This document shows positions 3,929-53,358 of a DNA stretch of 64,000 nt, one piece after another (the first letter of the stretch is position 1; each line of letters begins with the position of its first letter). The translations under genes and the position numbers were made by a program. This DNA is from Gammaproteobacteria bacterium. Its GTDB lineage: Bacteria > Pseudomonadota > Gammaproteobacteria > GCA-001735895. The notes beneath the pieces are model-generated. The model made no database searches, was not told where the DNA came from, and worked only from the letters and a program-made list of their open reading frames with translations. The stretch is taken from positions 3,519 through 67,518 of the forward strand of contig JBNKDE010000013.1 of assembly GCA_050288105.1 (NCBI GenBank), in the 5' to 3' direction.

Positions 3929-4000
3929 AACCACAGAGAACACGGAGTACACAGAGTAAAATATTGTTTACCATTAAATACCTCTGTGCTCTCTGTGGTT
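3929..4000. repeat. Heptamer-TIR intergenic repeat (CACAGAG family) R1, between acnD and prpF
   Basis: Left end aaccacagagaacacggagtacacagag, right end cctctgtgctctctgtggtt. The ends form an inverted repeat around a short AT-rich core. Confidence 0.8.
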
Positions 4001-4011
4001 GATATGTTTTA

Positions 4012-6600: not shown

Positions 6601-7295
6601 TTTGTGGCCCTCTTGATGGCATTAATATGGTTAATTAGATTTTTTTCCAGATTGCGACGGGTGTATAAAATATGACGACGCATCAGAATTTCAGCCAGTT
6701 CGGCATCACGATTCGAAATGGCCTGAACGATTTGTTTATGCTCGTCGAACGCGGTAGTGATGCGCGGCCCGGCCATCCCCAACTGCACGCGGTACATGCG
6801 GATCAGGTGATAGATGCCATTCATCAATTCAGAAATCAGGTGGCGGTTTTTGCTACCGAGCATGATGCGATAATGAAAATCGACATCTCCAGCCTCCTGG
6901 TAATAGGTTTCGCCGCCTTTAACGGTCTGGAAATGGGTCGTTAACAAGGCGTTCAAATCGGAGATTTCGGTATCCGTCATATGCTCAGCGGCCAGGCGCG
7001 CGGCCATGCCTTCCAGCGCCTCCCGCACCTGGTACAGTTCACCCAGACCTTCGATAGTCAAAGCAACCACGCGATAACCGACATTAGCCTTGCGCTCGAC
7101 CAGATGGCAGGTCTCCAGTCGATTCAGAGATTCGCGTACCACGGCACGGCTGACGGCGTATTTTGTCGACAACTCGGTTTCACTCAGCTTGGAACCAGAC
7201 GCGATGACACCCTCAACAATATCCGACCGCAGCTGGATAAAGGTCTTATCCGCAACCGTTACAGGCTGATCGGTGAAGTGCAGGATCGATGTCAC
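6597..7295 (-). CDS. GntR-family transcriptional regulator, likely propionate-locus regulator
   Basis: GntR HTH followed by an FCD-like C-terminus. Its stop overlaps the acnD start. The probable start is GTG at 7293-7295, preceded by aggag; the longer ATG ORF reading is less likely. Confidence 0.75.
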   Translation of the reverse strand: MTSILHFTDQPVTVADKTFIQLRSDIVEGVIASGSKLSETELSTKYAVSRAVVRESLNRLETCHLVERKANVGYRVVALTIEGLGELYQVREALEGMAARLAAEHMTDTEISDLNALLTTHFQTVKGGETYYQEAGDVDFHYRIMLGSKNRHLISELMNGIYHLIRMYRVQLGMAGPRITTAFDEHKQIVQAISNRDAELAEILMRRHILYTRRNLEKNLINHINAIKRATK

Positions 7296-7315
7296 TGAGA
7301 TATCTCCTCGTTTAA

Positions 7316-7377
7316 TTGTCGACAATATAAGCAAATTTAGTCTCAAGTTCTACCCTTAAAGCCGATATTGTCGACAA
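7316..7377. promoter_or_regulatory. Two perfect TTGTCGACAA palindromes (7316-7325, 7368-7377) upstream of the GntR gene; candidate operator
   Basis: Both palindromes are visible in the sequence just upstream of the regulator RBS. Function is inferred. Confidence 0.45.
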
Positions 7378-7442
7378 AAGTTAAGAATGATTCTTTATAT
7401 ATTGAGAATTTTTTGCGTTTATTAGTAGGTTTTAAAAGAAAT

Positions 7443-7576
7443 TAACCACAGAGGACACCGAGAACACGGAGAATGATTAGATAGGTTATCAGGCGCTACT
7501 TAAAATTTTATTTATCTAAGCGACTCAGATTTAGAAAAACCAGAATACCTCTGTGCTCTCCGTGTCCTCTGTGGTT
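7443..7576. repeat. Heptamer-TIR repeat R2
   Basis: Left end taaccacagaggacaccgagaacacggag, right end cctctgtgctctccgtgtcctctgtggtt. Confidence 0.85.
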
Positions 7577-7619
7577 AAATTCTGTTAACGATGGAAAAAA
7601 TGTATCCGCAAAAGAATCT

Positions 7620-8180: not shown

Positions 8181-8455
8181 GGTTTCACACGCTTACGCTT
8201 TCCTTGCTTCGTAGCGCCTGACGAGTACGCGTGCGAGCCCCTTTTTTGTTTGGCCAAAAAAGAGGCGCAAAAAAGGCCACCCCACCAAGCCCTTCATCGT
8301 CAAAATAGTGCCCAGATCGCGGTCGGCTCAGACGCGGGTCCAACCGCGCTGAGCCTCAAATGGCATCCCTGCCATTTGCCCCCGATCTGAACACCATTTT
8401 GCCGCGGGCTTGAAAGGGGGAATTAAGAAAAGATTTCAAGCAAAGCTTGAAATCT
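8181..8455 (-). repeat. Structured repeat element E2, copy 1, a relative of E1; ends with perfect hairpin agatttcaagcaaagcttgaaatct at 8431-8455
   Basis: Shares with E1 the module tttcacacgc...gcgtgcgag-cccttttt / aaaaaag...ggc and a ctcag...ctgag hairpin. Homologous to 43481-43780. Confidence 0.7.
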
Positions 8456-8460
8456 TTATT

Positions 8461-8745
8461 GTGTTTTTTTCCGCCCTTATTGAGTGCCGAAAATCGAGTC
8501 ATTTTGTAGGGTCAGCGCACATGGACGTGCGCTGAGGACAGTTGAGCAGGATGCGAATCTGTCCGTGCCCTGCAAAATGGCTTGATTTTCGGGGAGCCGC
8601 AGGCCACTCAATTGGGATGTCCTTTTTTTCGTCTCTTTTTTTGGACAAGCAAAAAAAGGGACTTGCACGCCTTTTAGAAAGATACTACGAAGCAAGGACA
8701 GCAAAGGCGTGTGAAACCATAATCCGGAAAGAACAAGAAAACTGA
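8461..8745 (+). repeat. Structured repeat element E1, copy B, truncated at both ends
   Basis: Roughly 80% identical to copy C and carries compensatory substitutions in its helices. It abuts the GST stop codon. Confidence 0.8.
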
Positions 8746-9875: not shown

Positions 9876-10739
9876 ATGAATACTAGAGACCTGAGTCCAG
9901 AGTTGTTACGTGCATTTGTCGCGGTTGTAGATGGGGGTGGTTTTACCCGGGCGGCTAATCGATTGAATAGTACGCAATCCACGGTCAGCCAGCAGCTTAA
10001 GCGCCTGGAAGAACGCCTGGGCGTAAGCCTGATGCAGCGTAATACCCGAGGCGTTGCATTGACTGAGCGAGGTGAGCTCATGCTGGGTTATGCCCGGCGA
10101 TTGCTGACGCTAAATGACGAAGCACTTACCGCACTGGAACAAACTCATCTTCGAGGGCGGGTACGACTGGGTTCAACCCAGGAAGTTGCCGATGGGGGGC
10201 TGGCTGATCTGCTGGCACGTTTTACCCGCCTGCATCCCGATGTCGAGCTGGAGATGCGAGTCGATAGTAATATGGCTTTACAGTATGAGGTTGAGCAGGG
10301 AGAGCTTGATCTGGCGGTTTTGTTTCAGGAGCCCGGTCAGGGTGCTCCTGGTAATGAAGTGATCGAGCGCCTGCGTCGGGTATGGGTGTCAGCACCGGGG
10401 CTGGTCATTAACCCGGATGAACCGTTGCCACTTATTCTTTCCAACGGCCCCTGTATTTTTCGCAATTCGGTATTGTCAGCACTGGATAGCATTGGTCGAC
10501 CCTGGCGTATTGTGCTTTCTACCCCTAGCCTTGCTGGAATACGTGCCGGAGTGCGCGCAGGCTTGGGTGTTTGTGTGCGCAGTGAACGCTGGCTGGAAGC
10601 CGATATGGAAATCATCGATCAGGGCCTGCCCCCGTTACCGGATGTCGAGCTTGCCATTATGTGTGGCGCAAAAACGGGCGAAAGTGTGGTTGAGCGATTA
10701 CGCATTGCCTTGCGTGGGGCACTGAGTCAGGCGGCATGA
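9876..10739 (+). CDS. LysR-family transcriptional regulator
   Basis: HTH (FTRAANRLNSTQSTVSQQLKRLE) plus a substrate-binding domain. Confidence 0.9.
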   Translation: MNTRDLSPELLRAFVAVVDGGGFTRAANRLNSTQSTVSQQLKRLEERLGVSLMQRNTRGVALTERGELMLGYARRLLTLNDEALTALEQTHLRGRVRLGSTQEVADGGLADLLARFTRLHPDVELEMRVDSNMALQYEVEQGELDLAVLFQEPGQGAPGNEVIERLRRVWVSAPGLVINPDEPLPLILSNGPCIFRNSVLSALDSIGRPWRIVLSTPSLAGIRAGVRAGLGVCVRSERWLEADMEIIDQGLPPLPDVELAIMCGAKTGESVVERLRIALRGALSQAA

Positions 10740-10752
10740 GTTCAAAAGACTG

Positions 10753-10967
10753 ATTAACCACGAAGAGCATGAAGAAAAACATTTTAACCACAGATTAGGG
10801 CAGGAAGCCCGTAAGTAGGGCAACGCAGGACGCAGTTGCCGAGGACACAGAGAACACGGAGAAGTGTGGTGTGGGATATTTTGAGGTATAAATTATCCAG
10901 TCAAACCAAGAGGTTCAATTTTAGGAAAATACAAAAACCTCTGTGCTCTCTGTGTCCTCTGTGGTTA
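10753..10967. repeat. Composite heptamer-TIR repeat R3, with embedded module-2 (agggcaggaagcccgtaagtagggcaacgcaggacgcagttgcc)
   Basis: ttaaccacgaag and ttaaccacag on the left, cctctgtgctctctgtgtcctctgtggtt on the right. Confidence 0.8.
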
Positions 10968-11056
10968 AAGAAGCGCGTTCAGGTTATTTGAAAATCAGGT
11001 TGATAGCCCAAGGTAGATTCGGCACTATCGTGATTTTCATTTCGCATGGAAGATAA

Positions 11057-15249: not shown

Positions 15250-15378
15250 GTTTCCTACAGAGTACACAGAGAACTTAGGTGCAGAATTTTTGAGGTATAA
15301 ATTATTCATTTAACACGAAGACGCTTAATGATAGGAAAATACAGAAAAACTCCGTGCTCTCCGTGTCCTCTGTGGTTT
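15250..15378. repeat. Heptamer-TIR repeat R4, left end partially truncated
   Basis: Left cctacagagtacacagagaac, right ctccgtgctctccgtgtcctctgtggttt. Confidence 0.75.
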
Positions 15379-15456
15379 AACATTTTTTAAGTTTTTTTAC
15401 CTTCGTTTGACAATTTTCCTAATGGTCGACCCATTAGTTGAGGTCAATGCAGATCT

Positions 15457-18197: not shown

Positions 18198-18418
18198 AAC
18201 AGTTTACTAGAAGGTTTCCGGTATAGTAGGTACTAGACGGATTGCTTCTAGTTCAGTCCCTTGTTTTCGATTCAGCCATACTAATCAACCGATAAAGCGA
18301 TTGTCAACGAATCAGGTCGATGGAGGAAAATGACTTTGGAACGAATGCTGCCGATTTATGTTGAGCCTGGAGTAGACTTTCTTTTTGGTTCGAATTCAAA
18401 AGTTTTCAGGGTGTTAAT

Positions 18419-18732
18419 TAGCCACCGAGAGTACGGAGCACACAGAGAGGGTTAGCGTGGTTTAATAAATTAACTGACCACGAGATAGGGCAACGCAGCA
18501 GAAACTGTCGGGTACACCTAAGGTACGAAGAAAAAATAATGTGTTTTCTCTGTGCTCTCGGTGTGCTCTGTGGTGAATAAGCTTTTTTCAGGTTACCGGG
18601 TTCTGCCGCAGCACAAGCAAGCCCCGGTAACCCACAAAGCACAACAAAGAAAACCCTTCGTAATCTTCGTGTGCTTGGCAACTGCGTCCTGCGTTGCCCT
18701 ACTTACGGGCGTCCTTGCCCTAATTCGTGGTT
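18419..18732. repeat. Heptamer-TIR repeat R5 (18419-18575) followed by a reverse-orientation module-2 copy (18655-18732)
   Basis: gccaccgagagtacggagcacacagag ... ctctgtgctctcggtgtgctctgtggtg, then ...ttggcaactgcgtcctgcgttgccctacttacgggcgtccttgccctaattcgtggttta. Confidence 0.75.
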
Positions 18733-18739: not shown

Positions 18740-18922
18740 TTACCGCTTATCGATAGAAACATACTCCCGGTTTTCCGGCCCGGTGTAGTTGGCGGAGGGT
18801 CGTATAATCTTGCCATCTTCACGCTGTTCGATCACATGCGCGCCCCAGCCGGAAACACGTGAGATAACAAACAAAGGGGTGAACATGTCAGTCGGTACGC
18901 CCATCTGGTTGTAGGAAAACAC
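18740..18922 (-). pseudogene. 3'-terminal remnant (last 60 codons) of a second 2-methylcitrate synthase gene (prpC')
   Basis: Its translation is identical to the C-terminal 60 aa of PrpC at 20883-22037. Nucleotide identity is about 91%, with every difference synonymous. There is no upstream gene body. Confidence 0.8.
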
Positions 18923-20362: not shown

Positions 20363-20466
20363 ATCTTCAACACACCCTACTGGAACAAAAAATTGTAATG
20401 TCAGATACAGGTTAAATTAAATAGCTGGAAATTTAATTTATACCTGATCACTGAACCCTCGCAGTC

Positions 20467-20745
20467 TTGGCGGCGCTGGACAAAATCGGTTGTCCTTGGC
20501 GTATTGTGCTTTCTACCCTCAGTCTTGTAGGAATAAGGGCTGGAGTGCGAGCCAGATTGGGTATTTGCGTAAGAAGCGAAAGATGGCAGGAAGATAATCT
20601 GTGTATTGTAGACCAGGGTCTGCCAGCGTTACCTGATGTTAAACTGGCGATCCTGTCGGGCACGAACACAGAAGAAAAGGTAGTCGAGAGATTAAGAACA
20701 GCCTTACGCGGTGCGCTAAGTCAGTCAAGTAGAAATGAATATTAA
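20467..20745 (+). pseudogene. C-terminal remnant of a LysR-family regulator gene (LysR')
   Basis: About 75% aa identity to the C-terminal ~90 residues of the LysR protein at 9876-10739. The N-terminal part is absent. Confidence 0.7.
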
Positions 20746-33457: not shown

Positions 33458-33901
33458 TTACCAGGACTTATAAGGCAGGAACTTACCATTCAAAGTCACA
33501 ACAACTCGGTCACCTTTAGGATCTTCCTGCTTGTCGATATTCATGGTGAAGTCAATCGCTGACATGATGCCATCGCCAAATTTCTCGTGGATCAGTTCTT
33601 TGATGGTTTCGCCATATACACCGACGATTTCGTACCAGCGATAGATAACGGGATCGGTAGGCACAACCTGGGCGAATTCTTTGTTGGGGAAGTCCTGCAA
33701 TGCGGATGACAGGTCTGCACCCAGTCCCAGGATCTCGGCCACCGGATCAGCATTCTCTTTTTCCAGGTGGTTCATACCCAGGCAGGCTGAAGTCGTGTAT
33801 TCGGGCGCGAGACCGGCAGCTTCAGCGATGGCCGCCCAGCTTAATCCCTTCTCTTTTTTGGCTGCCAGAATGGCAAGTTTCATTTCATGTTTGTTCATCA
33901 A
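33458..33901 (-). CDS. cynS: Cyanate hydratase (cyanase) CynS
   Basis: 147 aa. The C-terminal YRWYEIVGVYGETIKELIHEKFGDGIMSAIDF closely matches the E. coli CynS C-terminus as I recall it. Confidence 0.9.
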   Translation of the reverse strand: MMNKHEMKLAILAAKKEKGLSWAAIAEAAGLAPEYTTSACLGMNHLEKENADPVAEILGLGADLSSALQDFPNKEFAQVVPTDPVIYRWYEIVGVYGETIKELIHEKFGDGIMSAIDFTMNIDKQEDPKGDRVVVTLNGKFLPYKSW

Positions 33902-34035: not shown

Positions 34036-34080
34036 GATATTTGTCCGACAAAGTCGACAAAGTGGACACGAATTGATGGA
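34036..34080. promoter_or_regulatory. Phased GACAAAG direct repeats / GTCC-N17-GGAC inverted repeat; candidate enhancer (UAS)
   Basis: ttGTCCGACAAAGTCGACAAAGTGGACacgaattgatgGACAAAG, located 60-100 bp upstream of the sigma-54 promoter. Confidence 0.4.
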
Positions 34081-34132
34081 CAAAGCTGGCCAATGCATCG
34101 AAAAAATCCGTTTAACGGGTCAATTCAGCGGA

Positions 34133-34148
34133 TGGCATGATCTCTGCA
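34133..34148 (+). promoter_or_regulatory. Sigma-54 (-24/-12) promoter for the ABC importer operon
   Basis: TGGCAT-gatct-CTGCA, a GG-N10-GC spacing, ending about 35 bp upstream of the ATG at 34183. Confidence 0.55.
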
Positions 34149-34182
34149 TTGGTGATACCAATCAAAGTTTAGAGGTGTTGCC

Positions 34183-34995
34183 ATGAGTGCAAATTTAAGT
34201 ATCGATTACATTACCCATACCTTTAAGGGACAGAGTCAACCAACCCTTAAGGATATTGAGCTACAAATTAAGCCGGGCGAAAAAATCGCCCTCATCGGCC
34301 GCAGTGGCTGCGGCAAATCCACCCTGTTGCATATGCTGGCGGGTCTGTTGATCCCCAGTGAAGGTTGTGTACGCATACACGGACATACCGTGAGTAAGCC
34401 CAGCGCAAAATGGAACATGATGTTCCAGAAGCCTTCTTTATACCCCTGGATGAGTGTGCGTGAAAATGCCGAGTTGGGACTGGTATTCACAGGCAAACGC
34501 GACCCTCAGAAAATTGACCGCCTGCTCGCGATGGTGGGCCTGTCGGACAAGGCTGATGCCAATGTGCAAAGCCTGTCAGGTGGTCAGCAACAACGTGTGG
34601 CACTGGCTCGCTCGCTGGCGACTTCGCCAGAACTGTTGTTACTGGACGAGCCTTTTTCTGCACTGGATGCTTTCACCCGCTCAAGCCTGCAGGATGATGT
34701 TGCACGTATTGTGACCCAGGAAGGGTTGACGCTGGTAATTGTTACACATGATATCGATGAAGCGGTGGCAATGGCTGATCGCGTACTGATTATGTCTGCC
34801 AACCCGGGCAAGATCGTCGGTGAAATGCATGTCGACTTACCGCTTCCGCGTAACCGTGCATCTAACGAATTTAGCCGTCAGCGTGAACAGTTAATGAACC
34901 AGTTCGAAGGACTGGTCGGTGATGTTCATGCCTCTGATAACGAATCTGAAACGGCAGCCCAGAGCAAACTGCAAGCCGATCAAAAAGCTGCCTGA
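34183..34995 (+). CDS. ABC transporter ATP-binding protein (nitrate/cyanate/sulfonate NrtD/CynD/SsuB family)
   Basis: Walker A GRSGCGKST and signature LSGGQQQRVALAR. Confidence 0.85.
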   Translation: MSANLSIDYITHTFKGQSQPTLKDIELQIKPGEKIALIGRSGCGKSTLLHMLAGLLIPSEGCVRIHGHTVSKPSAKWNMMFQKPSLYPWMSVRENAELGLVFTGKRDPQKIDRLLAMVGLSDKADANVQSLSGGQQQRVALARSLATSPELLLLDEPFSALDAFTRSSLQDDVARIVTQEGLTLVIVTHDIDEAVAMADRVLIMSANPGKIVGEMHVDLPLPRNRASNEFSRQREQLMNQFEGLVGDVHASDNESETAAQSKLQADQKAA

Positions 34996-35022
34996 TAAAT
35001 CTATTAACCCTGGAGATGTACC

Positions 35023-36261
35023 ATGACTAAACAAAAAGATGATGAATTAGAATACCTGGCCAAACATGAAATGAGTCGTAGAGACTTCATGTTAGATATG
35101 ATGGCTATGGGCGGGCTGGCCGCCGGCATGACCATGCCTGGACTGGGTCTAGCCAATATGACACCCCCTGACGATGAAGTCGTCAGGATTGGATACCTGC
35201 CAATCACCGATGCGACTGCATTGCTGGTTGCGCATGGCATGGGCTTTTTTGAGGATGAAAGCCTGAAGGCTGAAAAGCCAACCTTGATTAGAGGCTGGTC
35301 TCCATTGGTGGAAGGCTTTGCCGCAGGCAAATTTAACCTGGTGCATTTTCTCAAGCCGATCCCGGTGTGGATGCGTTACAACAATGACTTTCCGGTCAAA
35401 ATCATGTCCTGGGCACATATCAATGGTTCGGCCCTGGTAGTGGGTAAGCACACGGGTGCAGAAGATTTCAAGGACCTGGGCGGCATGCAGGTCGCTGTTC
35501 CTTACTGGTATTCGATGCATAACATCGTGTTGCAGATGGGATTGCGTAGCGCAGGCCTGAAGCCGGTGATTAAGGACCAGAAAGCGCCGCTGGCAAAGGA
35601 TGAAGTTAACCTGATGATTATGCCGCCGCCTGACATGCCGCCTGCACTGGCTGCGCAAAAGATCGATGCCTTTATTGTGGCAGAGCCATTTAATGCCTTC
35701 GGTGAAATGAAAGCTGGCGGTAAAGTGTTGCGTTTTACCGGTGATATGTGGAAAAACCACCCTTGCTGCGTTATCTGCATGAATGAAAACACCGTCAATG
35801 CCAAGCCCGAGTGGACGCAAAAGGTGATGAATGCAATTGTTCGAGCCGAAGTGTATGCGCAACAGAACAAGGAAGAGGTCGCCATGATGATGTCTCGCGA
35901 CGGCAAAAAATACCTGCCCATGCCGGGTAAGGCAGTGGTCAGGGCGATGACTTATTATGATGAAGGCAAGTACGCAACACCCGATGCTATCCGCAACAAA
36001 GGCGAGTTTGGCAATGGTCGTATCGACTTTTCACCTTATCCCTATCCTTCGGCCACTAAAATGATCGTCGATGCCATGGGTGAAACACTGGTCAGTGGTG
36101 ACAATACCTTTATCAAGAAACTGGATCCTGAATTCGTAGCGAATGACCTGGTTGACTACAAGCATGTGAAAGCGGCAATGGCTAAATTCAAGGGCTGGGA
36201 AAACTCTCCCGGCGTTGATGCGGCGAATCCGTTTGAACGTGAAGAAGTGGTGAAGATATGA
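35023..36261 (+). CDS. ABC substrate-binding protein, NrtA/CmpA/CynA family, Tat-secreted
   Basis: Tat motif SRRDFML. 412 aa. Confidence 0.75.
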   Translation: MTKQKDDELEYLAKHEMSRRDFMLDMMAMGGLAAGMTMPGLGLANMTPPDDEVVRIGYLPITDATALLVAHGMGFFEDESLKAEKPTLIRGWSPLVEGFAAGKFNLVHFLKPIPVWMRYNNDFPVKIMSWAHINGSALVVGKHTGAEDFKDLGGMQVAVPYWYSMHNIVLQMGLRSAGLKPVIKDQKAPLAKDEVNLMIMPPPDMPPALAAQKIDAFIVAEPFNAFGEMKAGGKVLRFTGDMWKNHPCCVICMNENTVNAKPEWTQKVMNAIVRAEVYAQQNKEEVAMMMSRDGKKYLPMPGKAVVRAMTYYDEGKYATPDAIRNKGEFGNGRIDFSPYPYPSATKMIVDAMGETLVSGDNTFIKKLDPEFVANDLVDYKHVKAAMAKFKGWENSPGVDAANPFEREEVVKI

Positions 36262-37100
36262 GTACGCCTGAAACTGTGATGGCTTTTCGCATGCGCAAAA
36301 CCGGACCTGTGGTCGACTGGTCACAGCTGGGATTGTTTTTACTGACCCGCCTGGGTTATCCGGCTGCCGGTATTATGATGATGGTCGGATTATGGTGGAT
36401 TGGTGGCTGGTTGATCGCCAGCAATCCAGCAACCGAATCCTTTGCTGATTTTGCGCCAGAGCCTACTTTTTATCGTTTGATTGAGCTGGTTGCAAATGGC
36501 TACATGATCGAGGCTTCATTACCGAGTTTGCAGCGTATTGGACTGGGGCTATGGTGGGCGGTGTTGATCGGGGTGCCGGTGGGTGTCGCGATAGGGCTGT
36601 TCGCGCGCATGCGTGAACTGACCCACGTACCCTTCCAGTTCTTACGCATGATCTCGCCACTGGCGTGGATGCCGATTGCGGTTATGGCGTTTGCAACCTG
36701 GGATAGTGCGATCGTCTTTCTAATCACTGTGGCAGCGATCTGGCCAATTGTATTTTCTTCTGCACAGGGTGTACGCCGCATTGATCCGCTGTGGTTTAAG
36801 GTGGCGAAGAACCTGGGTGCAGGTGGCGTACAGATGCTGTGGCGTATTATTCTGCCTGCTATCGGTCAGGATGTGTTTGCCGGTATTCGCCTTGCGGTAG
36901 GTGTGGCCTGGATCGTGCTGGTTCCTGCCGAATACCTGGGTGTAACCAGCGGTCTGGGTTATGCGATCAACGATGCGCGAGATACGCTTGAGTATGACAC
37001 GCTGGCCGCTATGGTCGTGATCATTGGTATCATCGGCTTCTTTCTGGATGCCATTTGTGTCAGTTTCATCAAGCGATTCAGCTGGCACAATCAGGACTAA
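36258..37100 (+). CDS. ABC transporter permease (NrtB/CynB/SsuC family)
   Basis: 280 aa membrane protein carrying the EAA-like loop of the binding-protein-dependent family. Confidence 0.8.
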   Translation: MSTPETVMAFRMRKTGPVVDWSQLGLFLLTRLGYPAAGIMMMVGLWWIGGWLIASNPATESFADFAPEPTFYRLIELVANGYMIEASLPSLQRIGLGLWWAVLIGVPVGVAIGLFARMRELTHVPFQFLRMISPLAWMPIAVMAFATWDSAIVFLITVAAIWPIVFSSAQGVRRIDPLWFKVAKNLGAGGVQMLWRIILPAIGQDVFAGIRLAVGVAWIVLVPAEYLGVTSGLGYAINDARDTLEYDTLAAMVVIIGIIGFFLDAICVSFIKRFSWHNQD

Positions 37101-37257
37101 TCTGCGCACCATTTCGGTTCAAAAACAAAATCGAAATGGTGCAGCTCTTGCTGTTTCTGCACCTTAAATAAGAATCTACCGATTTACTAATGTAAAATTA
37201 GACGCGCTATTGTCGATAGGCATACTGATGCATTGTCGACATTGTCAGGAGTAGATT

Positions 37258-38877
37258 ATGGATCCGAGAAGTGACTCATCCATTCTTGAATCAGAATTGC
37301 TGGTTGTGCACGAAGCAGCCAAACTTATCACCCGCTATAAGGAACCCGGCCCGGCTATACAGGGCATCTTGAGATTACTTTCTCAACTACTCGGCTTAAA
37401 CCGGGGTCGGGTGCTATTGCCCGATATCCAGAGCAATACCCTTGAAATCAAATACGCTTATGGATTGACCGAAAATGAAAAGGATCGGGGTCGTTATATT
37501 ATTGGCGAAGGGGTGACCGGGAGAATCTATCAAACCGGTCAGATTGCGCTGATTCAGGATATCGATGAAGAGCCAACCTACCTGGCGCGCGCGGTTGACC
37601 GGACTACGCTACCTAGCGAAGTCGTATCCTATATTGGCTTACCTATTATTGCGGATGAATCTCCCATAGGCGTGCTGGCGGTGCATCGCCTGCGATTCCG
37701 GGAACGGCCCTTTGCACGCGATCTGGAACTGTTGCAGGTGATGTCGACCTTTATCGCCCAGGTACTGGTGATTAACGAACTGGTATCTGAGCGCACCGCG
37801 CAATTGGTATCAGAAAATCAGTTACTTAAAAATAAGCTGGAAAGCAAGGGTGCACGCTTTGGCATTATCGGGCAGAGTCCGGCATTACATCAGGCCATAC
37901 AACAGGCGTTGCAGGTCGCAGATACCAATACCACAGTATTATTGCTGGGTGAGTCGGGCACTGGTAAGGAAAGATTTGCGCGCATGCAGCATCTCGCGAG
38001 CCAGCGTGCGGAAGGCCCCTTTGTTAGTATCAACTGTGCAGCCATCCCTTCATCATTGATTGAGTCAGAACTATTCGGTCACGAGAAAGGTGCCTTCACC
38101 GGTGCAACAGGTACCAAGCAGGGCAAGATAGAACTGGCTTCAGGCGGTACGCTGTTTCTGGATGAAATCGGTGACATGGATCTGGAACTACAGGCCAAGT
38201 TGCTCAAGGTACTGGAGAACAAGGTGATTCAACGAGTAGGCGGCAGCAAGGATATCAATGTGGATGTGCGAATTCTCGCGGCTACCCATAAAAATCTGCA
38301 GGAAGCGGTAAATGAAAACCGCTTTCGTCTGGACCTGTTCTATCGACTGAATGTATTTCCGATAAGATTGCCAGCCCTGCGCGCACGACGCGGCGATGTA
38401 CCCCTGCTGTGTCGTTTCTTCCTGAATACGGCGAATGAAGAATATGCGCGTAACCAGAACTTTACTACGGGTGCCCTGCGTCTTCTGGAACAGTACCCCT
38501 GGCCGGGAAATATCCGGCAGCTGGAAAACCTGGTAAAGCGTGCGGTACTGTTATGTGTTGACAATCAGATTAGTGAAGAACTGATACAGCAGATACTGGA
38601 AGATGAAGTCGCGGTGAACTCACCGGGATCAGAAGACCTGTTGCCGCTAAACGCCGAAATCAATACCAGCTTTCCTCCACCTGTCAGCGAGGTTTATCAG
38701 CCCCAGTCACCCACGGACGGACTGCGGCCCTATTTACGCGTACGCGAAGACGAGAGTACTGAAATATTGCAGGCACTGGCGCAGCAGCACGGAAATAAAA
38801 CGCGGGCGGCGATGAGTTTAGGTATGACGCCACGACAGTTTCGTTACCGTATCAAGAAACTTAATCTTGAGGTTTGA
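37258..38877 (+). CDS. Sigma-54-dependent transcriptional activator with N-terminal GAF domain (NorR/NifA/FhlA-like architecture)
   Basis: GAF N-terminus, AAA+ core ([18 protein letters not shown]) and a C-terminal HTH. Confidence 0.85.
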
Positions 38878-38886
38878 CTGGCTTTT

Positions 38887-39161
38887 TAACCACGAATTAG
38901 GGCAGGGATGCCCGTAAGTAGAGCAACGCAGGAGCAGTTGCCGAGCACACGAAGGGGTTTGAGTAATGGGAAAAGAATTTTAACCACAGAGAGCACAGAG
39001 AGCACAGAGAATTATAAAAATATTCTGTAACTATTCATCTCCTGTTTTAAGAAGACTCTGGTAATTGCCTGGCAACATATCTTACATTCTTCGTGCCCTT
39101 CGTGGTTTATCAAACCAGAAACACACAAATCTTCTCTGTGTACTCTGTGCTCTCTGTGGTT
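38887..39161. repeat. Composite repeat R7: module-2 left end, CACAGAG left end, module-2 right end, CACAGAG right end (interleaved)
   Basis: ttaaccacgaattagggcagggatgcccgtaagtagagcaacgcaggagcagttgccgagcacacgaagg ... ttaaccacagagagcacagagagcacagag ... cttcgtgcccttcgtggttta ... ctctgtgtactctgtgctctctgtggtt. Confidence 0.8.
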
Positions 39162-39212
39162 CAAATTAACCAAGAGATCTTCTAAGCACACTCGGTGGTG
39201 TAACGCCACTGT

Positions 39213-39260
39213 TGGACAAAGGTGACAAAGTGTCCGGCATTGCCTGGACATTGTCGACAA
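39213..39260. promoter_or_regulatory. Candidate UAS: GGACAAAGGTGACAAAGTGTCC inverted/direct repeat plus TTGTCGACAA palindrome
   Basis: Located 75-120 bp upstream of the sigma-54 promoter at 39335. Confidence 0.4.
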
Positions 39261-39334
39261 ACCATTCTGATCGGATTTTCACTAGATACGAAATCTTCAC
39301 ATAAGTGATTGATATATAACAAATAAAACCCTTC

Positions 39335-39350
39335 TGGCTCGGCCGTTGCA
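39335..39350 (+). promoter_or_regulatory. Sigma-54 (-24/-12) promoter upstream of the OsmC-like gene
   Basis: TGGCTC-ggccg-TTGCA, ending about 43 bp upstream of the ATG at 39393. Confidence 0.6.
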
Positions 39351-39392
39351 ATAACTCCAGTATGTTTAATAAATATCAACTGGAGAATTAAC

Positions 39393-39941
39393 ATGAGTGT
39401 AAATCAACAAACTATTGCAAAAAACATGAGCTGCCTACGTCCTCTGGATGGTGAGGGTTTAAAGGAACTGGGCGAGAAGGGCAAAGCCAATCCGAACGCT
39501 GTCGTTACCCTGAAAGCTAAGACTGTCTGCGAAGGTCAGTTCCGCATGCAAACCTATGTGCGCGACCTGGCACCCATGCTGATCGATGAGCCGCCTCATC
39601 TTCTGGGCGAAAACAATGCACCTAATCCTTCTGAAGCAGTGCTGGCTACTTTAGGTGCCTGCCTGGCGGTAGGTGTACACGCTAATGCCACTGCTAGAGG
39701 AATTAAACTCAGCAAGCTGGAGCTGGAACTGGAAGGTGATATCAACGTAACCGCAGTATGGGGAACCGGAGATCTGGACGAAGCCAAGACACTGGGATTT
39801 TCCGCAGTGCGCGTGAAGATTGATGCCGAAGGTGATGCTTCTAAAGAAGAAATCGATGAAATCATCGGTCACTCTAATGTGTGGTCTCCAGTTGCTAATA
39901 CCCTGCGTAACAATGTTGCACTGGAAGTATCACCTGCATAA
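39393..39941 (+). CDS. OsmC/Ohr-family peroxiredoxin-like protein
   Basis: 182 aa with OsmC-like features (EAVLATLGACLAV). Confidence 0.6.
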   Translation: MSVNQQTIAKNMSCLRPLDGEGLKELGEKGKANPNAVVTLKAKTVCEGQFRMQTYVRDLAPMLIDEPPHLLGENNAPNPSEAVLATLGACLAVGVHANATARGIKLSKLELELEGDINVTAVWGTGDLDEAKTLGFSAVRVKIDAEGDASKEEIDEIIGHSNVWSPVANTLRNNVALEVSPA

Positions 39942-39967
39942 GCCTGGATATTAAAGGAGCCATAGCC

Positions 39968-41101
39968 ATGAGCGAATCAGTAAAAAGTCTATCCGATGAG
40001 ATACTGTCGGTTGAACAATTGATCAGTTCGACCCAGCAGATCGTTGATACCACTTTAAAGCCATTAACCAACAAGATAGATATTGAAGGTTATTATCCTG
40101 AAGAAGTGTTGCGTCAACTGGGGCCGATAGGCGCATTTAAACAGCATCTTCCTTTCGTACGTAAGGACGGTGAACATGACATGGGCGCAGCCATACAGGC
40201 TATGGCTACGGTTTCGCATGAATGCATGTCAACCGGTTTTACCATGTGGTGTCAGGATACCTGTGGATGGTATCTGCAAAGCGCGGCGAACACCGAAGTT
40301 AGAGACATCTGGCTACCTAAAATTGCCAGCGGCGAAGTGCTCGCGGGTACCGGCATGTCTAATACCATGAAAGCATTTGCGGGTATCGAGCCACTACGCC
40401 TGAAGGGTAAAAAGGTCGATGGAGGTTACATTGTAAATGGTTCATTACCCTGGGTATCTAACCTGGGTGAGAATCATGTCTTTGGCACTTTATTCGAGCT
40501 GGAAGGCGCAAACGGTCGTTCAGTGATGACGCTGGTCGATTGTTCGATGGAAGGCTTTACACTCAGACTTTCTGCACATTTCACCGCATTAGAAGGTACC
40601 CGTACCTTTGCCTGTATCTTCGATAATGTGTTTATTCCTGACTCGATGATTATCGATCATGATGGCGCGTCGTTTCTCAAGCGTATCCGTGCAGGTATGG
40701 TGTTACTACAATTCGGTATGGGTGTCGGTAATATCCAGTCCTGCATCGATCTAAGCCGTGATGTTGAACCACTGCTGGGGCACGTAAACTGCTATCTGGA
40801 AGATCGCCCTGATGAGTTACAGGAAGAGCTGGATGATGCGGTAGAAGCCACTCTGGCACTGGCGGAAGATCCGTTCGAAACCTCGGATGAGTTTTTCCGT
40901 GAAATTCTACAGCTACGTCTTGCTGCAGGTGAACTGGCCATACGTGCTTCGCAATCAGCCATGATGCATACCGGCGCCAAGGGTTACCTGAAAGAAGCGC
41001 CTGCACAGAGAAAGTTACGTGAATCCTACTTTATTGCCATTGTTACACCGGCCATCAAGCATTTACGTAAAGAACTGGACACCATGGCTGTCGCAGCCTG
41101 A
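39968..41101 (+). CDS. Acyl-CoA-dehydrogenase-fold protein, possibly flavin monooxygenase/oxidase type
   Basis: 377 aa with the overall ACAD three-domain layout. Lies in the operon with OsmC. Confidence 0.55.
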   Translation: MSESVKSLSDEILSVEQLISSTQQIVDTTLKPLTNKIDIEGYYPEEVLRQLGPIGAFKQHLPFVRKDGEHDMGAAIQAMATVSHECMSTGFTMWCQDTCGWYLQSAANTEVRDIWLPKIASGEVLAGTGMSNTMKAFAGIEPLRLKGKKVDGGYIVNGSLPWVSNLGENHVFGTLFELEGANGRSVMTLVDCSMEGFTLRLSAHFTALEGTRTFACIFDNVFIPDSMIIDHDGASFLKRIRAGMVLLQFGMGVGNIQSCIDLSRDVEPLLGHVNCYLEDRPDELQEELDDAVEATLALAEDPFETSDEFFREILQLRLAAGELAIRASQSAMMHTGAKGYLKEAPAQRKLRESYFIAIVTPAIKHLRKELDTMAVAA

Positions 41102-41161
41102 GTCTCATGATGAGGGGCATTTTGCCCCTCAATTTAAATTGAGAATATAGAAGAGAATGCG

Positions 41162-41542
41162 ATGAAAACAATCAAATCAAATCAATCAGCTGAACAAACA
41201 GTAGCAACCTTACTAGCGGCCATCGAACAGCAGAATATGCGCGTGGTGGCACATATAAATGGACAGGCGAATGCCGCCAAAATGGGTAAAACCGTACCTG
41301 CTGATCAGATTCTGGAAGTGTTCAGACCCGATTTCGCAATCCGCGTGTGGGATGCCTGCAAAGCAGCAGGGCATGACATTCCGTTGCGTATCCATGTGTA
41401 CGAACAGGGCGATGATGTGATTGTTGCCTGTCGTATGCCGGGTGAAGTATTTGCGCCTTTTAAATCTGAAGGGCTGGATGCCATTGGTGCAGAGCTGGAT
41501 GAAATATTCGGCAATATTATTAACGCAGTGAGCGAGGATTAA
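41162..41542 (+). CDS. DUF302-domain protein
   Basis: 126 aa resembling the DUF302 family. Confidence 0.5.
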   Translation: MKTIKSNQSAEQTVATLLAAIEQQNMRVVAHINGQANAAKMGKTVPADQILEVFRPDFAIRVWDACKAAGHDIPLRIHVYEQGDDVIVACRMPGEVFAPFKSEGLDAIGAELDEIFGNIINAVSED

Positions 41543-41545
41543 GTC

Positions 41546-42922
41546 ATGAATGAGTCAGATTATAAGCGTTATGTATGCGATGCCTGCGGGTATATCTACG
41601 ATGAAGCCGAAGGTGATTTGGATTCCGGCCTGATGCCAGGTACTCGGTTCGAGGATATCCCGAATGACTGGCAATGCCCATTATGCGGTCTGACCAAAAG
41701 TGACCTGCGACTGCTTCCTGATATGCCGCTAGCACCTGCGGTGAATAAAATCATCAAACCGGCGAACACTAAACTGAGTCGCGGCAGTGATGATGCTATT
41801 GTAATCATCGGCGCTGGCATTGCTGGCTGGTCAGTGGCTGAAGCGGTACGTAAGCAGGATCAGCAAACCCCAATATTACTGGTATCCGCCTGTGCCGGTA
41901 TTATCTATCCCAAGCCTGCATTATCGACGGCGCTGGCGAAGGGCAAAAGCGCGCAAGACCTGTCCGATATGGATGCGTCCAGTAAGGCGGCAGCATTGAA
42001 TATCGAGGTCAGAACAGAAACCCGTGTCATTAAAATCGATAGTGCAAAAAAGCGTATCACCACTTCCAAAGGTGGAATTCAGTACGGCAAATTAATCCTG
42101 GCGATGGGGGCTCATCAGCGAGAAATCCCTATCGCAGGCGATGCCTCGGATACGGTGGTGCGGGTGAATGACCTGCTGGCTTACCGCAAATTACGCGATC
42201 GTCTGGATGCCGGAGTGCGTCATGTCACCATTCTGGGTGCAGGACTGATCGGTTGCGAATTTGCCGAAGACCTGTCATCAGCGGGTTACCGGGTCAGCGT
42301 TATTGAACCGAGTGATCATGCCATGGCAAGCCTGCTGCCAAATGACGTATCACAGCGGCTGAAGGCGCAGCTACAGAACAAAGGTGTGGACTGGCACCTG
42401 AGTACCACACTGGATCAGGTGGAACATAATGCTGACCGTTTGCGTGCCATTTTGTCTGATGGCTCTGCGCTGGAAACCGATCTGGTCCTGTCCGCTGCGG
42501 GCCTGCAGGCGAATACCCAACTGGCAGAGAAAGCGGGTATCCGCGTAGGCAAGGGCATCATCACCGATCATTTGATGCGCACTTCGCATGAAGGTATCTA
42601 TGCTATTGGCGACTGCGCCGAGGTAGATGGACAAATCTACGCCTATATCGAACCGATCAGACGGCAGGCCGAAACTATCGCATCCCAGTTAAGCGGTAAT
42701 GTTGTTCCGTTTAAAACCCTGTCACCGCTGGTCAGGGTTAAAACCCCCAGCTTTCCGCTCAGCATTTGCCTGCCTACCGCAGTGGATGAAACCAACATTG
42801 AGCGACGAGATGTTAACGAGCAGCATATTGAGTATCTGGCAGGAGGCAAACTGGTCGGCTTTATACTGACTGGTACTGAGTCCTCCAGTGCGACACAAAT
42901 GTATTCTCAGATCTGTGCCTGA
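41546..42922 (+). CDS. Rubredoxin fused to FAD/NAD(P)H rubredoxin-reductase-like oxidoreductase
   Basis: N-terminal rubredoxin (CDACGYIY...WQCPLCG) and a Rossmann motif ([14 protein letters not shown]), in 458 aa. Confidence 0.8.
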
Positions 42923-42994
42923 AAACGTTGATTGACCTGCCTGTGGGCAAAGCCTAACCTTAGCAGCTATATACTAGCTGCAAAAAGGTCGGGC

Positions 42995-43231
42995 ATGAAA
43001 AAACTGAAAAATGAAAAAGAACTGATCAAAAAAGCGATTGAAGAAGGTGTTAAATATGGTGAAGCCAGAGGCGTAGTTGAATTCGAACCTACGGATTCAG
43101 CGAATGAAAAGATCGAGTACATTTATCGCCTGCTGGTACACGATAAGGTAATACAGCCCATTCCCGAGATTGAGGTATCGCAGGTCACCATGCGCCATAA
43201 GCTGGCGATCTGGGCGTCCAAGCTCAAGTAG
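42995..43231 (+). CDS. Hypothetical small protein
   Basis: 78 aa ORF (MKKLKNEKELIKKAIEEG...). RBS is weak. Confidence 0.3.
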   Translation: MKKLKNEKELIKKAIEEGVKYGEARGVVEFEPTDSANEKIEYIYRLLVHDKVIQPIPEIEVSQVTMRHKLAIWASKLK

Positions 43232-43480: not shown

Positions 43481-43780
43481 GATTTCACACGCTGAAAACT
43501 TTTCTCGCTCTGTAGTTAAGTCGTGCCTGCGTGCGAGTAACTTTTCAGGCATGAAAAGTCACCAAAAATGCTTTCCCAACAGTCCCTTCTTCCGTCAAAA
43601 GCACAGCCAAATCGCGGTCGGGGCAGACGCGTTCCTGACGCGACTGCCCCTAAATTCGCTTCCCTGCGAATTTACCCCGATTTGACTGCACTTTTGCCGC
43701 GGGTCTGGATGGGGTTTAAAAAACAGAGATTTCAAGCACAGCTTGAAGTCTCAAGAAACTCAAGTTTCAAGATCTGATCC
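43481..43780 (-). repeat. Structured repeat element E2, copy 2; ends with hairpin agatttcaagcacagcttgaagtct at 43727-43751
   Basis: Collinear with 8181-8455: tttcacacgc...gcgtgcgag..., cgtcaaaag...atcgcggtcggGGcagacgcg...cgcgaCTgCCcc, ttttgccgcggg. Confidence 0.7.
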
Positions 43781-50107: not shown

Positions 50108-50443
50108 AAACGTGAATGCAACTTTTGGTTTTATCTCCCCTTCTGGAGTGCCGAAAATGGGGCCATTTAGTAAGGTCAGCGCACAGGGACGTGCGCTGAG
50201 GACAGTCGAGCACGGATGCGAGTCTGTCCGTGCCTTGCTAAATGGTTCGATTTTCGGGAAGCCGCAGGCCGCTCCAGTGGGGCGCCCTTTTCTTTCGTCT
50301 CTTTCTTTTGGGCGAGCAAAAGAAAGGGACTCGCACGCCAGCCAGGAAGATACTACAAAGCCAGGAAAGCTAAGGCGTGTGAAATTCTACACGATCAGAA
50401 ACAACAAACTTCAAAACGCTCCACAACAGGCTGAGTTTGGTGG
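50108..50443 (+). repeat. Structured repeat element E1, copy C (most complete)
   Basis: Helices: 50151-50175 pairs with 50233-50258; hairpin 50176-50199; hairpin gtctctttcttttg/caaaagaaagggac at 50297-50330. Confidence 0.8.
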
Positions 50444-53166: not shown

Positions 53167-53217
53167 TATTTTTATCATACTTAAGATTGTGCTGATCTAC
53201 AGACTTTAAAGAGAATA

Positions 53218-53358
53218 TTCACCACCGAGGACACAGAGTTCACGGAGGTTAAAAGCTCAATTTTAAATTCAGAAGGCTTGTGCAATATTGAAACGTGAAT
53301 TCAATAAAATAAGAATAATAATCAGGTAAATGATTTTCTCAGTGAACTCTGTGGTGAT
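53218..53358. repeat. Heptamer-TIR repeat R8
   Basis: Left ttcaccaccgaggacacagagttcacggagg, right ctcagtgaactctgtggtgat. Confidence 0.75.

Follow-up and report, generated by a model that had tools for sequence, protein, structure and literature searches.

Gene content of the locus

The 64,000-nucleotide stretch of contig JBNKDE010000013.1 (assembly GCA_050288105.1) analysed here, referred to as the window, carries between positions 33458 and 42922 a self-contained, horizontally mobile module of nine genes that is predicted to be controlled by one sigma-54 activator. At the left end of the module, on the minus strand, lies cynS (33458-33898), which encodes a cyanase of 146 amino acids when read from its ATG; the open reading frame (ORF) listing starts it at a TTG one codon earlier (33901), and a 146-residue cynS is also called in locus L001, one of the genome loci fetched for comparison, which are cited by their L numbers where they need to be told apart. 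All the remaining genes lie on the plus strand. Those of an ATP-binding cassette (ABC) importer come first and encode a NitT/TauT-type ATPase (34183-34995), a periplasmic, NrtA/CmpA-like substrate-binding protein of the NMT1_2 family (35023-36261) and a permease (36258-37100). They are followed by the gene for a sigma-54 enhancer-binding protein of GAF/AAA+/HTH_8 architecture (37258-38877) and by a second operon, which encodes an OsmC-like protein with one cysteine (39393-39941), a flavoprotein of the acyl-CoA dehydrogenase (ACAD) fold (39968-41101), a DUF302 protein (41162-41542) and a rubredoxin fused to a NAD(P)H:FAD oxidoreductase of the NorW/rubredoxin-reductase type (41546-42922).

Gene calls were taken from the ORF listing and families from Pfam and NCBIfam profile searches with curated cutoffs; for all genes the profiles agree with the gene content described in an initial annotation that had been made from the sequence alone. 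The minus-strand ORF, which that annotation had read as a cynS divergent from the importer, is recognised by the cyanase models NF002773 (207.8 bits, cutoff 150) and TIGR00673 (172.3 bits, cutoff 113.3) and contains the Pfam domains Cyanate_lyase and CYNS_N. The ATPase matches ABC_tran and scores best in NCBIfam with nitrate and sulfonate ATPases, all below cutoff, the binding protein matches NMT1_2 (139 bits) and the permease BPD_transp_1. In the second operon the matches are to OsmC (PF02566, 67 bits), Acyl-CoA_dh_N as the only Pfam domain of the ACAD-fold protein, DUF302 (36 bits) and, for the fusion protein, Rubredoxin, Pyr_redox_2 and Rbx_binding.

For comparison, an alignment of ACAD-fold orthologues gave 261 matching stretches (one-genome-per-species contigs), from which 80 genome loci were fetched and their module content mapped by tblastn with the module proteins of the window. 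A close relative is contig JBNKPV010000032.1 of assembly GCA_050295535.1, a gammaproteobacterial metagenome-assembled genome (MAG), which encodes an identical (100%) ACAD-fold protein and counterparts of the other module proteins at 96-99% identity.

Sigma-54 promoters

The initial annotation had proposed two sigma-54 promoters, one before the importer and one before the OsmC operon, and both are borne out: TGGCATGATCTCTGCA (34133-34148, plus strand) and TGGCTCGGCCGTTGCA (39335-39350, plus strand) are -24/-12 elements at the positions it gave, with the canonical GG-N10-GC spacing, and are conserved across loci. Its count was one short, a third candidate having been missed, namely TGGCATTGCATTTGCA, on the minus strand (33966-33951) and 65 nt upstream of cynS. 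Taken by itself, the window offers only a weak case for these promoters, because neither the -24/-12 pattern nor the GACAAAG repeat is enriched there: a relaxed -24/-12 pattern gives 12 matches where 7.1 ± 2.8 are expected by chance, and GACAAAG gives 11 where 8.6 are expected. This doubt is removed because the elements are conserved at a fixed distance from their genes in other genomes. The importer element, TGGCAYGATNNCTGCA, is found 49-53 nt 5' of the ATPase start codon in approximately 30 distinct gammaproteobacterial loci, the OsmC element, TGGCACAGGCNTTGCW, 56-68 nt 5' of the OsmC start codon in approximately 40 loci, and the cynS element, 60-76 nt 5' of its gene, is kept in 26 of 27 distinct loci. 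The cynS and importer promoters lie back-to-back, with a median separation of 173 bp across loci. Given that both have conserved elements, cynS and the importer are predicted to be driven from this pair of divergent sigma-54 promoters. The importer operons of Alphaproteobacteria also have a -24/-12 element, with no activator gene adjacent, an arrangement that would fit general nitrogen control.

A shared candidate activator box

Both promoters of the initial annotation had been described as preceded, at enhancer distance, by similar repeat arrays. When upstream regions are aligned on the -24 element, these arrays resolve into a shared 14-bp core box, GACAWWGTCGACAA, with additional GACAA/TTGTC half-sites; the GACAAAG repeat named in that description is, as given above, unenriched in itself. 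Three exact copies of the box are present in the window (34047-34060, 39247-39260 and 37233-37246), and with up to two mismatches there are eight matches against 1.4 ± 1.2 expected, a number reached in none of 100 shuffles. In a census of 91 fetched loci the exact box occurs solely upstream of ATPase, regulator or OsmC genes; 41 loci of about 20 kb hold no exact copy at any other place. It lies approximately 85-88 bp from the -24 element, or one helical turn further at 96-99 bp, in 25 of the 29 importer promoters compared and in 34 of the 42 compared for OsmC, and in the divergent region it is placed midway, about 78-91 bp from the -24 of cynS and 84-86 bp from that of the importer. In the window, the putative activator region shared by the cynS and importer promoters spans 34036-34085, with the core GACAAAGTCGACAA at 34047-34060 flanked by TTTGTCC and by GTGGACA/GGACAAAG half-sites, and the putative activator region of the OsmC operon spans 39213-39262, with the core GACATTGTCGACAA at 39247-39260 and GACAAAGGTGACAAAGTGTCC half-site repeats at 39215-39235. 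The Marinobacter and Burkholderia plasmid versions have the same layout, in which GACAWTGTC repeats are followed by a -24/-12 element.

Between the OsmC activator box and its -24 element lies TAAGTGATTGATA (39302-39314, plus strand), which resembles a site for integration host factor (IHF) in that it fits YAANNNNTTGATW. The IHF-like site is fixed at -32/-33 from the OsmC -24 in 7 of 42 loci by the strict pattern, for which the rate in mononucleotide shuffles is 0.007, and in 16 of 42 by a loose one. This constitutes moderate evidence only that the putative site is real.

The third exact copy of the box, GACAATGTCGACAA, is on the minus strand at 37233-37246, 12-25 nt 5' of the start codon of the regulator, and is a presumed autoregulatory operator. 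Of 39 distinct loci, 23 keep it in this position, and in many of these it sits just downstream of a TGGC-N8-TTGC element. The placement of the box just upstream of the regulator start suggests that the regulator is autoregulated through it, possibly in a negative sense. A point on the other side is that in the clade of the window the TGGC-N8-TTGC element before the regulator looks degenerate, with a sigma-70-like TTAGAC-N17-CATACT seen there by eye instead.

Two further box-like sites in the window, at 7316-7329 and 7364-7377, were considered as members of the regulon and ruled out, as they flank a GntR/FCD gene in a PrpF/AcnD methylcitrate cluster and have only the TTGTCGACAA palindrome in common with the box. 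These two sites form an inverted TATTGTCGACAA pair (7316-7329 on the minus strand, 7364-7377 on the plus strand) that precedes the GntR/FCD gene (6597-7346), itself adjoining genes for an AcnD-like aconitase and PrpF, and the pair probably serves the methylcitrate cluster as its operator.

The GAF-type activator

The activator scores 239.8 bits with Sigma54_activat (PF00158), 58.2 with GAF and 39.6 with HTH_8, and its translation carries the Walker A motif GESGTGKE and the GAFTGA loop. With an AAA+ sigma-54 domain, a Fis-type helix-turn-helix (HTH) and an N-terminal sensor, it has the domains that define a bacterial enhancer-binding protein. The initial annotation had regarded it as the only sigma-54 activator nearby, and a scan of the 39 further predicted proteins of the window, all large ORFs included, found no second one; neither rpoN nor nif genes were found among the proteins scanned. 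Its best model scores are with NifA and NorR, and both identities were tried for the activator and rejected. NifA scores 447.8 against a cutoff of 528.85 (TIGR01817), and the box, by eye, is not TGT-N10-ACA. NorR scores 348.4 against a cutoff of 476 (NF003451) in a match that starts at residue 120 and leaves the GAF domain uncovered, and the box is not GT-N7-AC. Given that both equivalog scores are below cutoff, the activator is neither NifA nor NorR.

The central claim of the initial annotation, that one GAF activator acts on both flanking operons through shared sites, is supported by this phylogenetic footprinting, and the architecture of the regulon, with its activator, three promoters and shared box, is considered very likely to be correct from comparative sequence analysis. 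The promoters and the box are conserved and the module is co-inherited across genomes; we infer that the activator binds the box and that transcription depends on sigma-54. In the regulatory scheme proposed, the GAF activator would bind the GACAWWGTCGACAA boxes together with the GACAA/TTGTC half-sites. From the shared midway site it would switch on cynS leftward and the importer rightward, and from the second site, approximately 88 bp upstream and with the help of an IHF-like bend, it would switch on the OsmC-like/ACAD-fold/DUF302/rubredoxin-reductase operon. The box just upstream of the regulator's ribosome-binding site would give autoregulation.

Locus L020 has a second activator beside cynABD-like genes, which was considered and set aside as a different regulator because its sensor is a PAS rather than a GAF domain. 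On the Klebsiella pneumoniae plasmid pRHBSTW-00973_5 (L089), a mobilizable IncFIA plasmid, a GAF-type sigma-54 activator with a sensor domain 40% identical to that of the window adjoins genes for two ABC transporters, a carbon-nitrogen hydrolase of the nitrilase family and a nitrile hydratase, with a Tn3 family transposase gene next to them. Its position beside nitrile hydratase and nitrilase-family genes raises the possibility that this family of activators serves the catabolism of C-N compounds more generally. In L008 a type VI secretion effector cassette (5745-7409), consisting of an AHH nuclease toxin, an Imm11-like immunity gene and an Hcp gene, sits between the permease and the activator, which indicates that this junction tolerates insertions.

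The importer and its binding protein

The initial annotation had called the transporter a cyanate-type importer. That it is an ABC importer stands, and the cyanate label is doubtful, the binding protein being only 28-29% identical to the one from cynABD-like genes. This low identity holds, in the comparison set, for the binding proteins of the cynA-B-D-cynS-like operons of Thioalkalivibrio and for those of L020 and Moraxella, whereas the binding protein is 62-90% identical to its counterpart wherever the OsmC/ACAD pair occurs, a Pirellulaceae MAG included. The two kinds of transporter stand together in the Thioalkalivibrio loci, where a cynA-B-D-cynS-like operon is followed by the GAF activator and then by a window-type importer, which is transcribed away from the OsmC operon. 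In the window the importer genes run ATPase, binding protein, permease, and the co-transcription of A, B, D and S that characterises CynABD is not seen, cynS being divergent with a promoter of its own. It is thus probable, on these comparisons, that the importer and the canonical CynABD are not orthologues.

The closest solved structures to the binding protein are those of NrtA, CmpA and the C-terminal domain of NrtC, which bind small anions, with SsuA a marginal relative; in NCBIfam the best score, below cutoff, is with the SsuA family model. The protein carries a twin-arginine (Tat) signal (SRRDFM) and an invariant HPCC where NrtC has HPGK, and the residues R19, R20, H246, P247, C248, C249 and C252 are invariant. 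The combination of HPCC and Tat signal was considered as the signature of a special ligand and ruled out, since CmpA/NrtA-type paralogues have both.

Proteins of the second operon

The ACAD-fold protein was modelled with AlphaFold2 (pLDDT 84, pTM 0.86) and is predicted to have the three-domain ACAD fold: Foldseek superposes the model on structures of SCAD, IVD and BCAD with TM scores of 0.75-0.82, the identity to true ACADs is 17-20%, and the top 50 matches are all ordinary ACADs at 15-20% identity. Beyond the N-terminal domain, Pfam matches are below cutoff (Acyl-CoA_dh_M, 18.4 against 33.3; Acyl-CoA_dh_1, 13.6 against 22.4; Acyl-CoA_dh_2, 16.3 against 22.7), and in NCBIfam there is no match to a DszC or SfnB model, only weak ones below cutoff such as HsaA at 20 bits. 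The family is small and well separated: a search of 1.84 billion proteins gives 148 representatives at E ≤ 1e-30, rising to 562 at E ≤ 1e-10. Across the metagenomic clusters that encode it, more than 100 in number, the protein keeps approximately 80% identity.

Whether the glutamate base of the dehydrogenases is present had been raised by the initial annotation, and it is absent at both the MCAD/SCAD-type and the IVD-type positions. The HMMER alignment to SCAD and butyryl-CoA dehydrogenase ends at residue 357. An ungapped extension, using what we take to be the SCAD sequence past that point, sets Thr360-Pro361 opposite the catalytic Y-E-G and the invariant Arg367 opposite the conserved EIQR arginine, and at the IVD-type position, before the helix-G arginine, the residue is Ile240. 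Given that Thr360-Pro361 and Ile240 occupy the positions of the glutamates, the protein would lack the canonical catalytic base. DszC and MsuC, in which the ACAD fold serves S-oxygenation, are likewise without the catalytic glutamate. Foldseek and relaxed Pfam searches were tried as a means of telling an affinity to DszC-type enzymes or nitroalkane oxidase from an affinity to dehydrogenases, and neither separated them.

The OsmC-like protein has the OsmC fold (nearest structure 2opl, E = 1e-15) and does not have the two catalytic cysteines of an OsmC/Ohr thiol peroxidase: among 76 orthologues Cys90 is invariant and the position of the second cysteine is held by an invariant serine, Ser165 (WSPV). 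The reductase that adjoins the ACAD-fold gene is of the rubredoxin/ferredoxin-reductase type and not a flavin reductase. It scores 305.3 bits with the NorW model (cutoff 392), and no CxxxxC redox disulfide was seen in its translation. Such reductases, of the rubredoxin-reductase type in Gammaproteobacteria and the ferredoxin-reductase type in Alphaproteobacteria, belong to the class that feeds oxygenases. The DUF302 protein is an accessory, present in most gammaproteobacterial loci and missing in L031, L046, L056 and the alphaproteobacterial loci (L060-L080, L083 and L084). Between the ACAD-fold and DUF302 genes lies a GC-rich hairpin (41111-41131, plus strand) with a 9-bp stem, six GC pairs and a weak T tail, which is possibly a partial terminator or attenuator, or an element that stabilises the OsmC-ACAD portion of the mRNA. 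The reductase gene is immediately followed by a DUF5062 gene (42932-43231), kept only in the closest relatives L006-L008 (83-96% identity), and because its conservation is limited to these it probably lies outside the module.

Distribution and mobility of the module

Candidatus Sedimenticola has the same nine genes in the same order, flanked by urease genes, and the nine genes recur with other flanks in approximately 35 further Gammaproteobacteria, among them Thiodiazotropha, Thiohalomonadaceae, Chromatiaceae, Thiotrichales, Acidihalobacter and Cocleimonas. The module recurs in numerous sulfur oxidisers, and it is found in Thioalkalivibrio and Marinobacter as well. On the conjugative plasmid pMAD49a of Marinobacter shengliensis the order is ABC, activator, OsmC, ACAD, oxidoreductase, cynS, and in Burkholderia sp. 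PAMC 26561 a single operon holds the activator, OsmC, ACAD and oxidoreductase genes, those for a CmpA/NrtA-type binding protein, permease and ATPase, and cynS. In the Alphaproteobacteria (Roseibium, Breoghania, Ferrovibrio and Methylocystis) a divergent TetR gene precedes ABC, OsmC and ACAD genes, which in Roseibium are followed by those for a two-domain rhodanese, a ferredoxin-reductase-type enzyme and cynS. Two-domain rhodaneses are encoded inside the cluster in three separate lineages, namely Alphaproteobacteria (Roseibium), the Pirellulaceae MAG and two Gammaproteobacteria. The importer thus travels together with the OsmC-like/ACAD pair in Gammaproteobacteria, Alphaproteobacteria and a planctomycete, and an ACAD-fold gene is accompanied by the importer also on a cyanobacterial plasmid.

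Smaller versions are found elsewhere. Neisseria gonorrhoeae (L085, 6315-8374) has genes for a CMD/AhpD-like protein of 182 amino acids, an ACAD-fold homologue (43% identity) and a rubredoxin, adjoining dld, and a plasmid of Moraxella osloensis has CMD, ACAD, a rubredoxin-reductase fusion and a CmpA/NrtA-type transporter. The Neisseria CMD/AhpD-like protein is perhaps NafA/NMB0995, a 19-kDa 'anti-aggregation factor' (PMC3128610). In Methylocystis, Moraxella, Neisseria and the cyanobacterial plasmid pANL the core occurs without cynS. In summary, the invariant core consists of the ACAD-fold protein and a small, interchangeable and often thiol-based partner; an NrtA-like importer usually accompanies it, and a reductase and cynS often do.

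Proposed function and alternatives

The second operon belongs to a core of enzymes, as yet uncharacterised, that may prove to constitute a new pathway: no description of an OsmC/ACAD/DUF302/rubredoxin-reductase operon was found in the searchable literature, nothing there links the module to thiocyanate or cyanase, and a transcriptome paper on thiocyanate in Thioalkalivibrio does not mention the module genes. That the pathway feeds or ends in cyanate is rather probable from the gene neighbourhoods. The core stands beside sulfur genes in one lineage and under sigma-54 together with cyanase in others, which is what a compound containing sulfur as well as nitrogen would lead one to expect. Thiocyanate is the simplest substrate to fit, given the sigma-54 and cyanase context, the sulfur-assimilation neighbours, the sulfane-sulfur carriers and the import of a small anion. 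This agrees with the guess of the initial annotation that the second operon yields cyanate from a sulfur or nitrogen compound such as thiocyanate. Thiocyanate is put forward tentatively on the genomic context, its chances lying clearly below even. NitT/TauT transporters have been proposed as thiocyanate importers where they lie next to thiocyanate hydrolase (PMC5328954).

We infer the substrate and each chemical step of the following scheme. The module would scavenge nitrogen by way of cyanate. The Tat-exported, NrtA-like binding protein and its transporter would take up a small, cyanate-yielding anion, most likely thiocyanate, and the ACAD-fold flavoprotein, supplied with electrons from NAD(P)H by the rubredoxin-reductase, would oxygenate its sulfur atom. 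Cys90 of the OsmC-like protein would capture the oxidised sulfur species, after which hydrolysis at the carbon would free cyanate and leave a persulfide to be handed to the DUF302 protein, or to a rhodanese in other genomes. The cyanase would finally turn the cyanate into ammonia and CO2. Taken as a whole, a regulon that couples the import and oxidative desulfuration of thiocyanate, through cyanate, to ammonia is the best explanation found, and it is favoured with caution, at a little under even chances.

This raises the further and rather unlikely possibility that the trio of OsmC-like protein, ACAD-fold protein and reductase, together with the NrtA-like importer, is a third and so far unrecognised route of thiocyanate degradation, one that would be cytoplasmic, dependent on flavin, NAD(P)H and O2, and would yield cyanate and protein-bound sulfane sulfur. 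It would provide nitrogen under sigma-54 in sulfur oxidisers of sediments and in marine Alphaproteobacteria, it may provide sulfur in cyanobacteria (pANL), and in Neisseria and Moraxella it could possibly serve to cope with thiocyanate or hypothiocyanite from the host.

Several observations weigh against the thiocyanate scheme. First, Foldseek puts the flavoprotein no nearer to ACAD-fold monooxygenases than to true dehydrogenases, and the match of its C-terminal domain to a monooxygenase-type Pfam model is insignificant. Second, we know of no precedent for a rubredoxin that reduces a flavoprotein. Third, Burkholderia, Moraxella and L046 pair the trio of OsmC or CMD, ACAD and reductase with a CmpA/NrtA-type binding protein; because the trio can be combined with this other type, the window-type importer is not obligatory and cyanate itself is a possible cargo. 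The ligands of the two types of binding protein are, moreover, not separable by sequence, because HPCC and the Tat signal are common to both. Finally, the Thioalkalivibrio species that bear the module do not overlap with the TcDH-positive, thiocyanate-oxidising strains (PMC5328954).

The strongest alternative is that the system handles cyanate alone, the importer being a paralogue of CynABD for cyanate and the second operon a co-induced protection or repair system against peroxides or the damage that cyanate and isocyanate do to thiols. The near-constant presence of cynS, the Burkholderia operon in which the trio lies with a CmpA/NrtA-type transporter and cynS, the thiol peroxidase folds of OsmC and CMD/AhpD-like proteins and the cyanate induction of CynF/cynABDS, the closest studied system (PMC6627978), can all be read in this way. 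However, this is unlikely on several grounds: first, cynFABDS by itself is enough for Pseudomonas pseudoalcaligenes to grow on cyanate at concentrations of up to 100 mM (PMC6627978), and second, both transporter types are found side by side in Thioalkalivibrio. Furthermore, the core occurs without cynS in the four settings named above, and neither the recurrent rhodaneses nor the pANL unit beside cysK would be explained.

It has also to be considered that the flavoprotein is a cyanide oxygenase, in which the reduced ACAD-fold protein turns cyanide into cyanate, for example by a flavin hydroperoxide, with a rhodanese as a parallel detoxification, the OsmC-like protein removing peroxide from uncoupled turnover and cyanase completing the assimilation. 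A reductase of the type that supplies electrons to oxygenases is indeed present, rhodaneses are the classic cyanide-detoxifying enzymes, and cyanase is linked to the core. Yet hydrogen cyanide crosses membranes freely, which would make a strictly co-inherited, high-affinity ABC importer superfluous, most hosts inhabit sulfidic sediments, where little free cyanide is to be expected, and the cysK neighbourhood of the pANL homologue would be left unexplained; cyanide as the substrate is therefore quite improbable.

No more credible is the scavenging of organosulfur compounds, in which a sulfonate- or sulfinate-like substrate would be handled as by MsuC, SfnB or DszC and cynS would be a mere neighbour that shares a nitrogen-responsive regulator. 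This would account for the SsuA model as the best, though sub-cutoff, match of the binding protein and for the pANL homologue, which has cysK as its neighbour and whose plasmid has a proposed sulfur-regulated region, and ACAD-fold S-oxygenases do occur under a sigma-54 activator, SfnR. It is at odds with the location of cynS within the OsmC/ACAD/reductase operon in Marinobacter, Burkholderia, Roseibium and L056, with the sigma-54-type promoters found even in Alphaproteobacteria, and with the lack of an SsuD/SsuE-type partner, and the closest solved relatives of the binding protein bind nitrate or bicarbonate, SsuA being marginal. A NorR-like response to nitrosative stress, in which the GAF activator would sense nitric oxide and induce a rubredoxin/NorW-type reductase against nitric oxide or peroxynitrite, would suit the GAF/AAA+/HTH architecture, the NorW model as the best NCBIfam score of the reductase and a rubredoxin domain as in NorV, but is very improbable given that the NorR match is below cutoff and begins only at residue 120 with the GAF domain unaligned, that no flavodiiron protein is present, that GT-N7-AC NorR boxes were not found by eye and that it would be left unexplained why cyanase and an anion importer are so strictly linked to the system.

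In sediments, soda lakes, wastewater and host mucosa both cyanate and thiocyanate serve, on a small but real scale, as currencies of nitrogen and sulfur, which gives the module its interest. No more than two enzymes that open thiocyanate are known, and the route taken by the many bacteria that use it merely for nitrogen is unassigned (PMC5328954). Three sigma-54 promoters, one 14-bp box and a putative autoregulatory operator make up a regulatory code that can be tested, and there are cultured carriers, among them Roseibium marinum DSM 17023, R. aggregatum, Breoghania corrubedonensis DSM 23382, Azospirillum agricola, Thioalkalivibrio versutus AL2 and Marinobacter shengliensis D49.

Other features of the window

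Elsewhere in the window there are at least seven copies of intergenic elements like repetitive extragenic palindromes (REP) or miniature inverted-repeat transposable elements (MITE), with the termini TTAACCACAGAG(N)CACAGAG ... CTCTGTG(N)CTCTGTGGTTAA. They are located at 3917-4011, 7432-7578, 10939-10968, 15350-15379, 18408-18577, 20732-20876, 38970-39163 and 53208-53247, the copy at 38970-39163 lying between the stop codon of the activator and the OsmC activator region. A non-coding repeat of approximately 300 nt, without an Rfam match, is present at 8406-8716 and 50123-50384 (78-84% identity), and a partial copy of 50 nt follows shortly after the end of the module (43702-43751). Direct repeats of 261 nt (10470-10730 and 20464-20724, 71% identity), the first copy of which is inside a LysR-family gene (9876-10739), and of 176 nt (18741-18916 and 20884-21059, 91% identity) were also found. 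Rfam and tRNA scans of the window gave no matches.

Comparison with known systems

The activator and the reductase recall NorR/norVW of Escherichia coli and the NifA family, with which they share the GAF/AAA+/HTH architecture, several upstream sites and a rubredoxin with a NorW-type NADH reductase. The differences are that no flavodiiron NorV and no nif genes are present here and that the rubredoxin of the window is fused to its reductase, not to a terminal enzyme. The resemblance to DszC, MsuC/SfnC and SfnB lies in the ACAD fold without the catalytic glutamate, the adjacent gene for an NAD(P)H reductase, the transporters of the same superfamily and, for some of these systems, control by SfnR. 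In contrast to them, the reductase of the window is not a flavin reductase, and the small partner (OsmC-like, CMD-like or DUF4242) and the cyanase have no counterpart there.

Among the thiocyanate-degrading systems, the clusters of thiocyanate hydrolase (scnABC) and of TcDH have ABC transporters as the module does, of the NitT/TauT family at the hydrolase and of unstated family after TcDH (PMC5328954, PMC5744179). The TcDH clusters resemble it further in a sigma-54-responsive regulator and in having sulfur-transfer proteins, and sometimes cyanase, near, and TcDH yields cyanate and sulfur (PMC5328954, PMC5744179). However, the module has neither a nitrile-hydratase-like gene nor one for the copper enzyme TcDH: no scnABC or TcDH domains were found in the module proteins, and in other loci tblastn accounts for the genes from cynS to the reductase. 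The candidate catalyst is instead a flavoprotein of the cytoplasm, for which NAD(P)H and O2 would be required.

In Synechococcus elongatus PCC 7942, plasmid pANL carries an ACAD-family gene (32% identity) next to genes for an ATPase, a binding protein and a permease in the same order, and this binding protein shares 44% identity with its window counterpart over the full length. The pANL unit differs in that it lies beside cysK, has no preceding sigma-54 activator, has a DUF4242/SCO4226-like small partner and lacks an adjacent reductase or cynS. A sulfur-regulated region has been proposed on pANL, numerous genes of which are in the CysR iModulon, a statement that concerns the region and not the DUF4242-ACAD-ABC genes as such (PMC11420160).

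The cynFABDS cluster of Pseudomonas pseudoalcaligenes CECT5344 also has an essential sigma-54-dependent activator of the Fis family, a sigma-54 promoter before a NitT/TauT-type transporter and cyanase as the end enzyme, and it is nitrogen-controlled and induced by cyanate (PMC6627978). The activator gene of CECT5344 and a single cynA-B-D-S operon point away from each other, whereas in the window the activator lies downstream of the importer on the same strand, with cynS divergent, the transporter genes in the order ATPase, binding protein, permease, and an additional four-gene operon in the regulon. Even with a substrate other than thiocyanate, an answer would assign a function to a distinct ACAD-fold family and to a clade of single-cysteine OsmC proteins, and it would extend the CynF paradigm of cyanate regulation.

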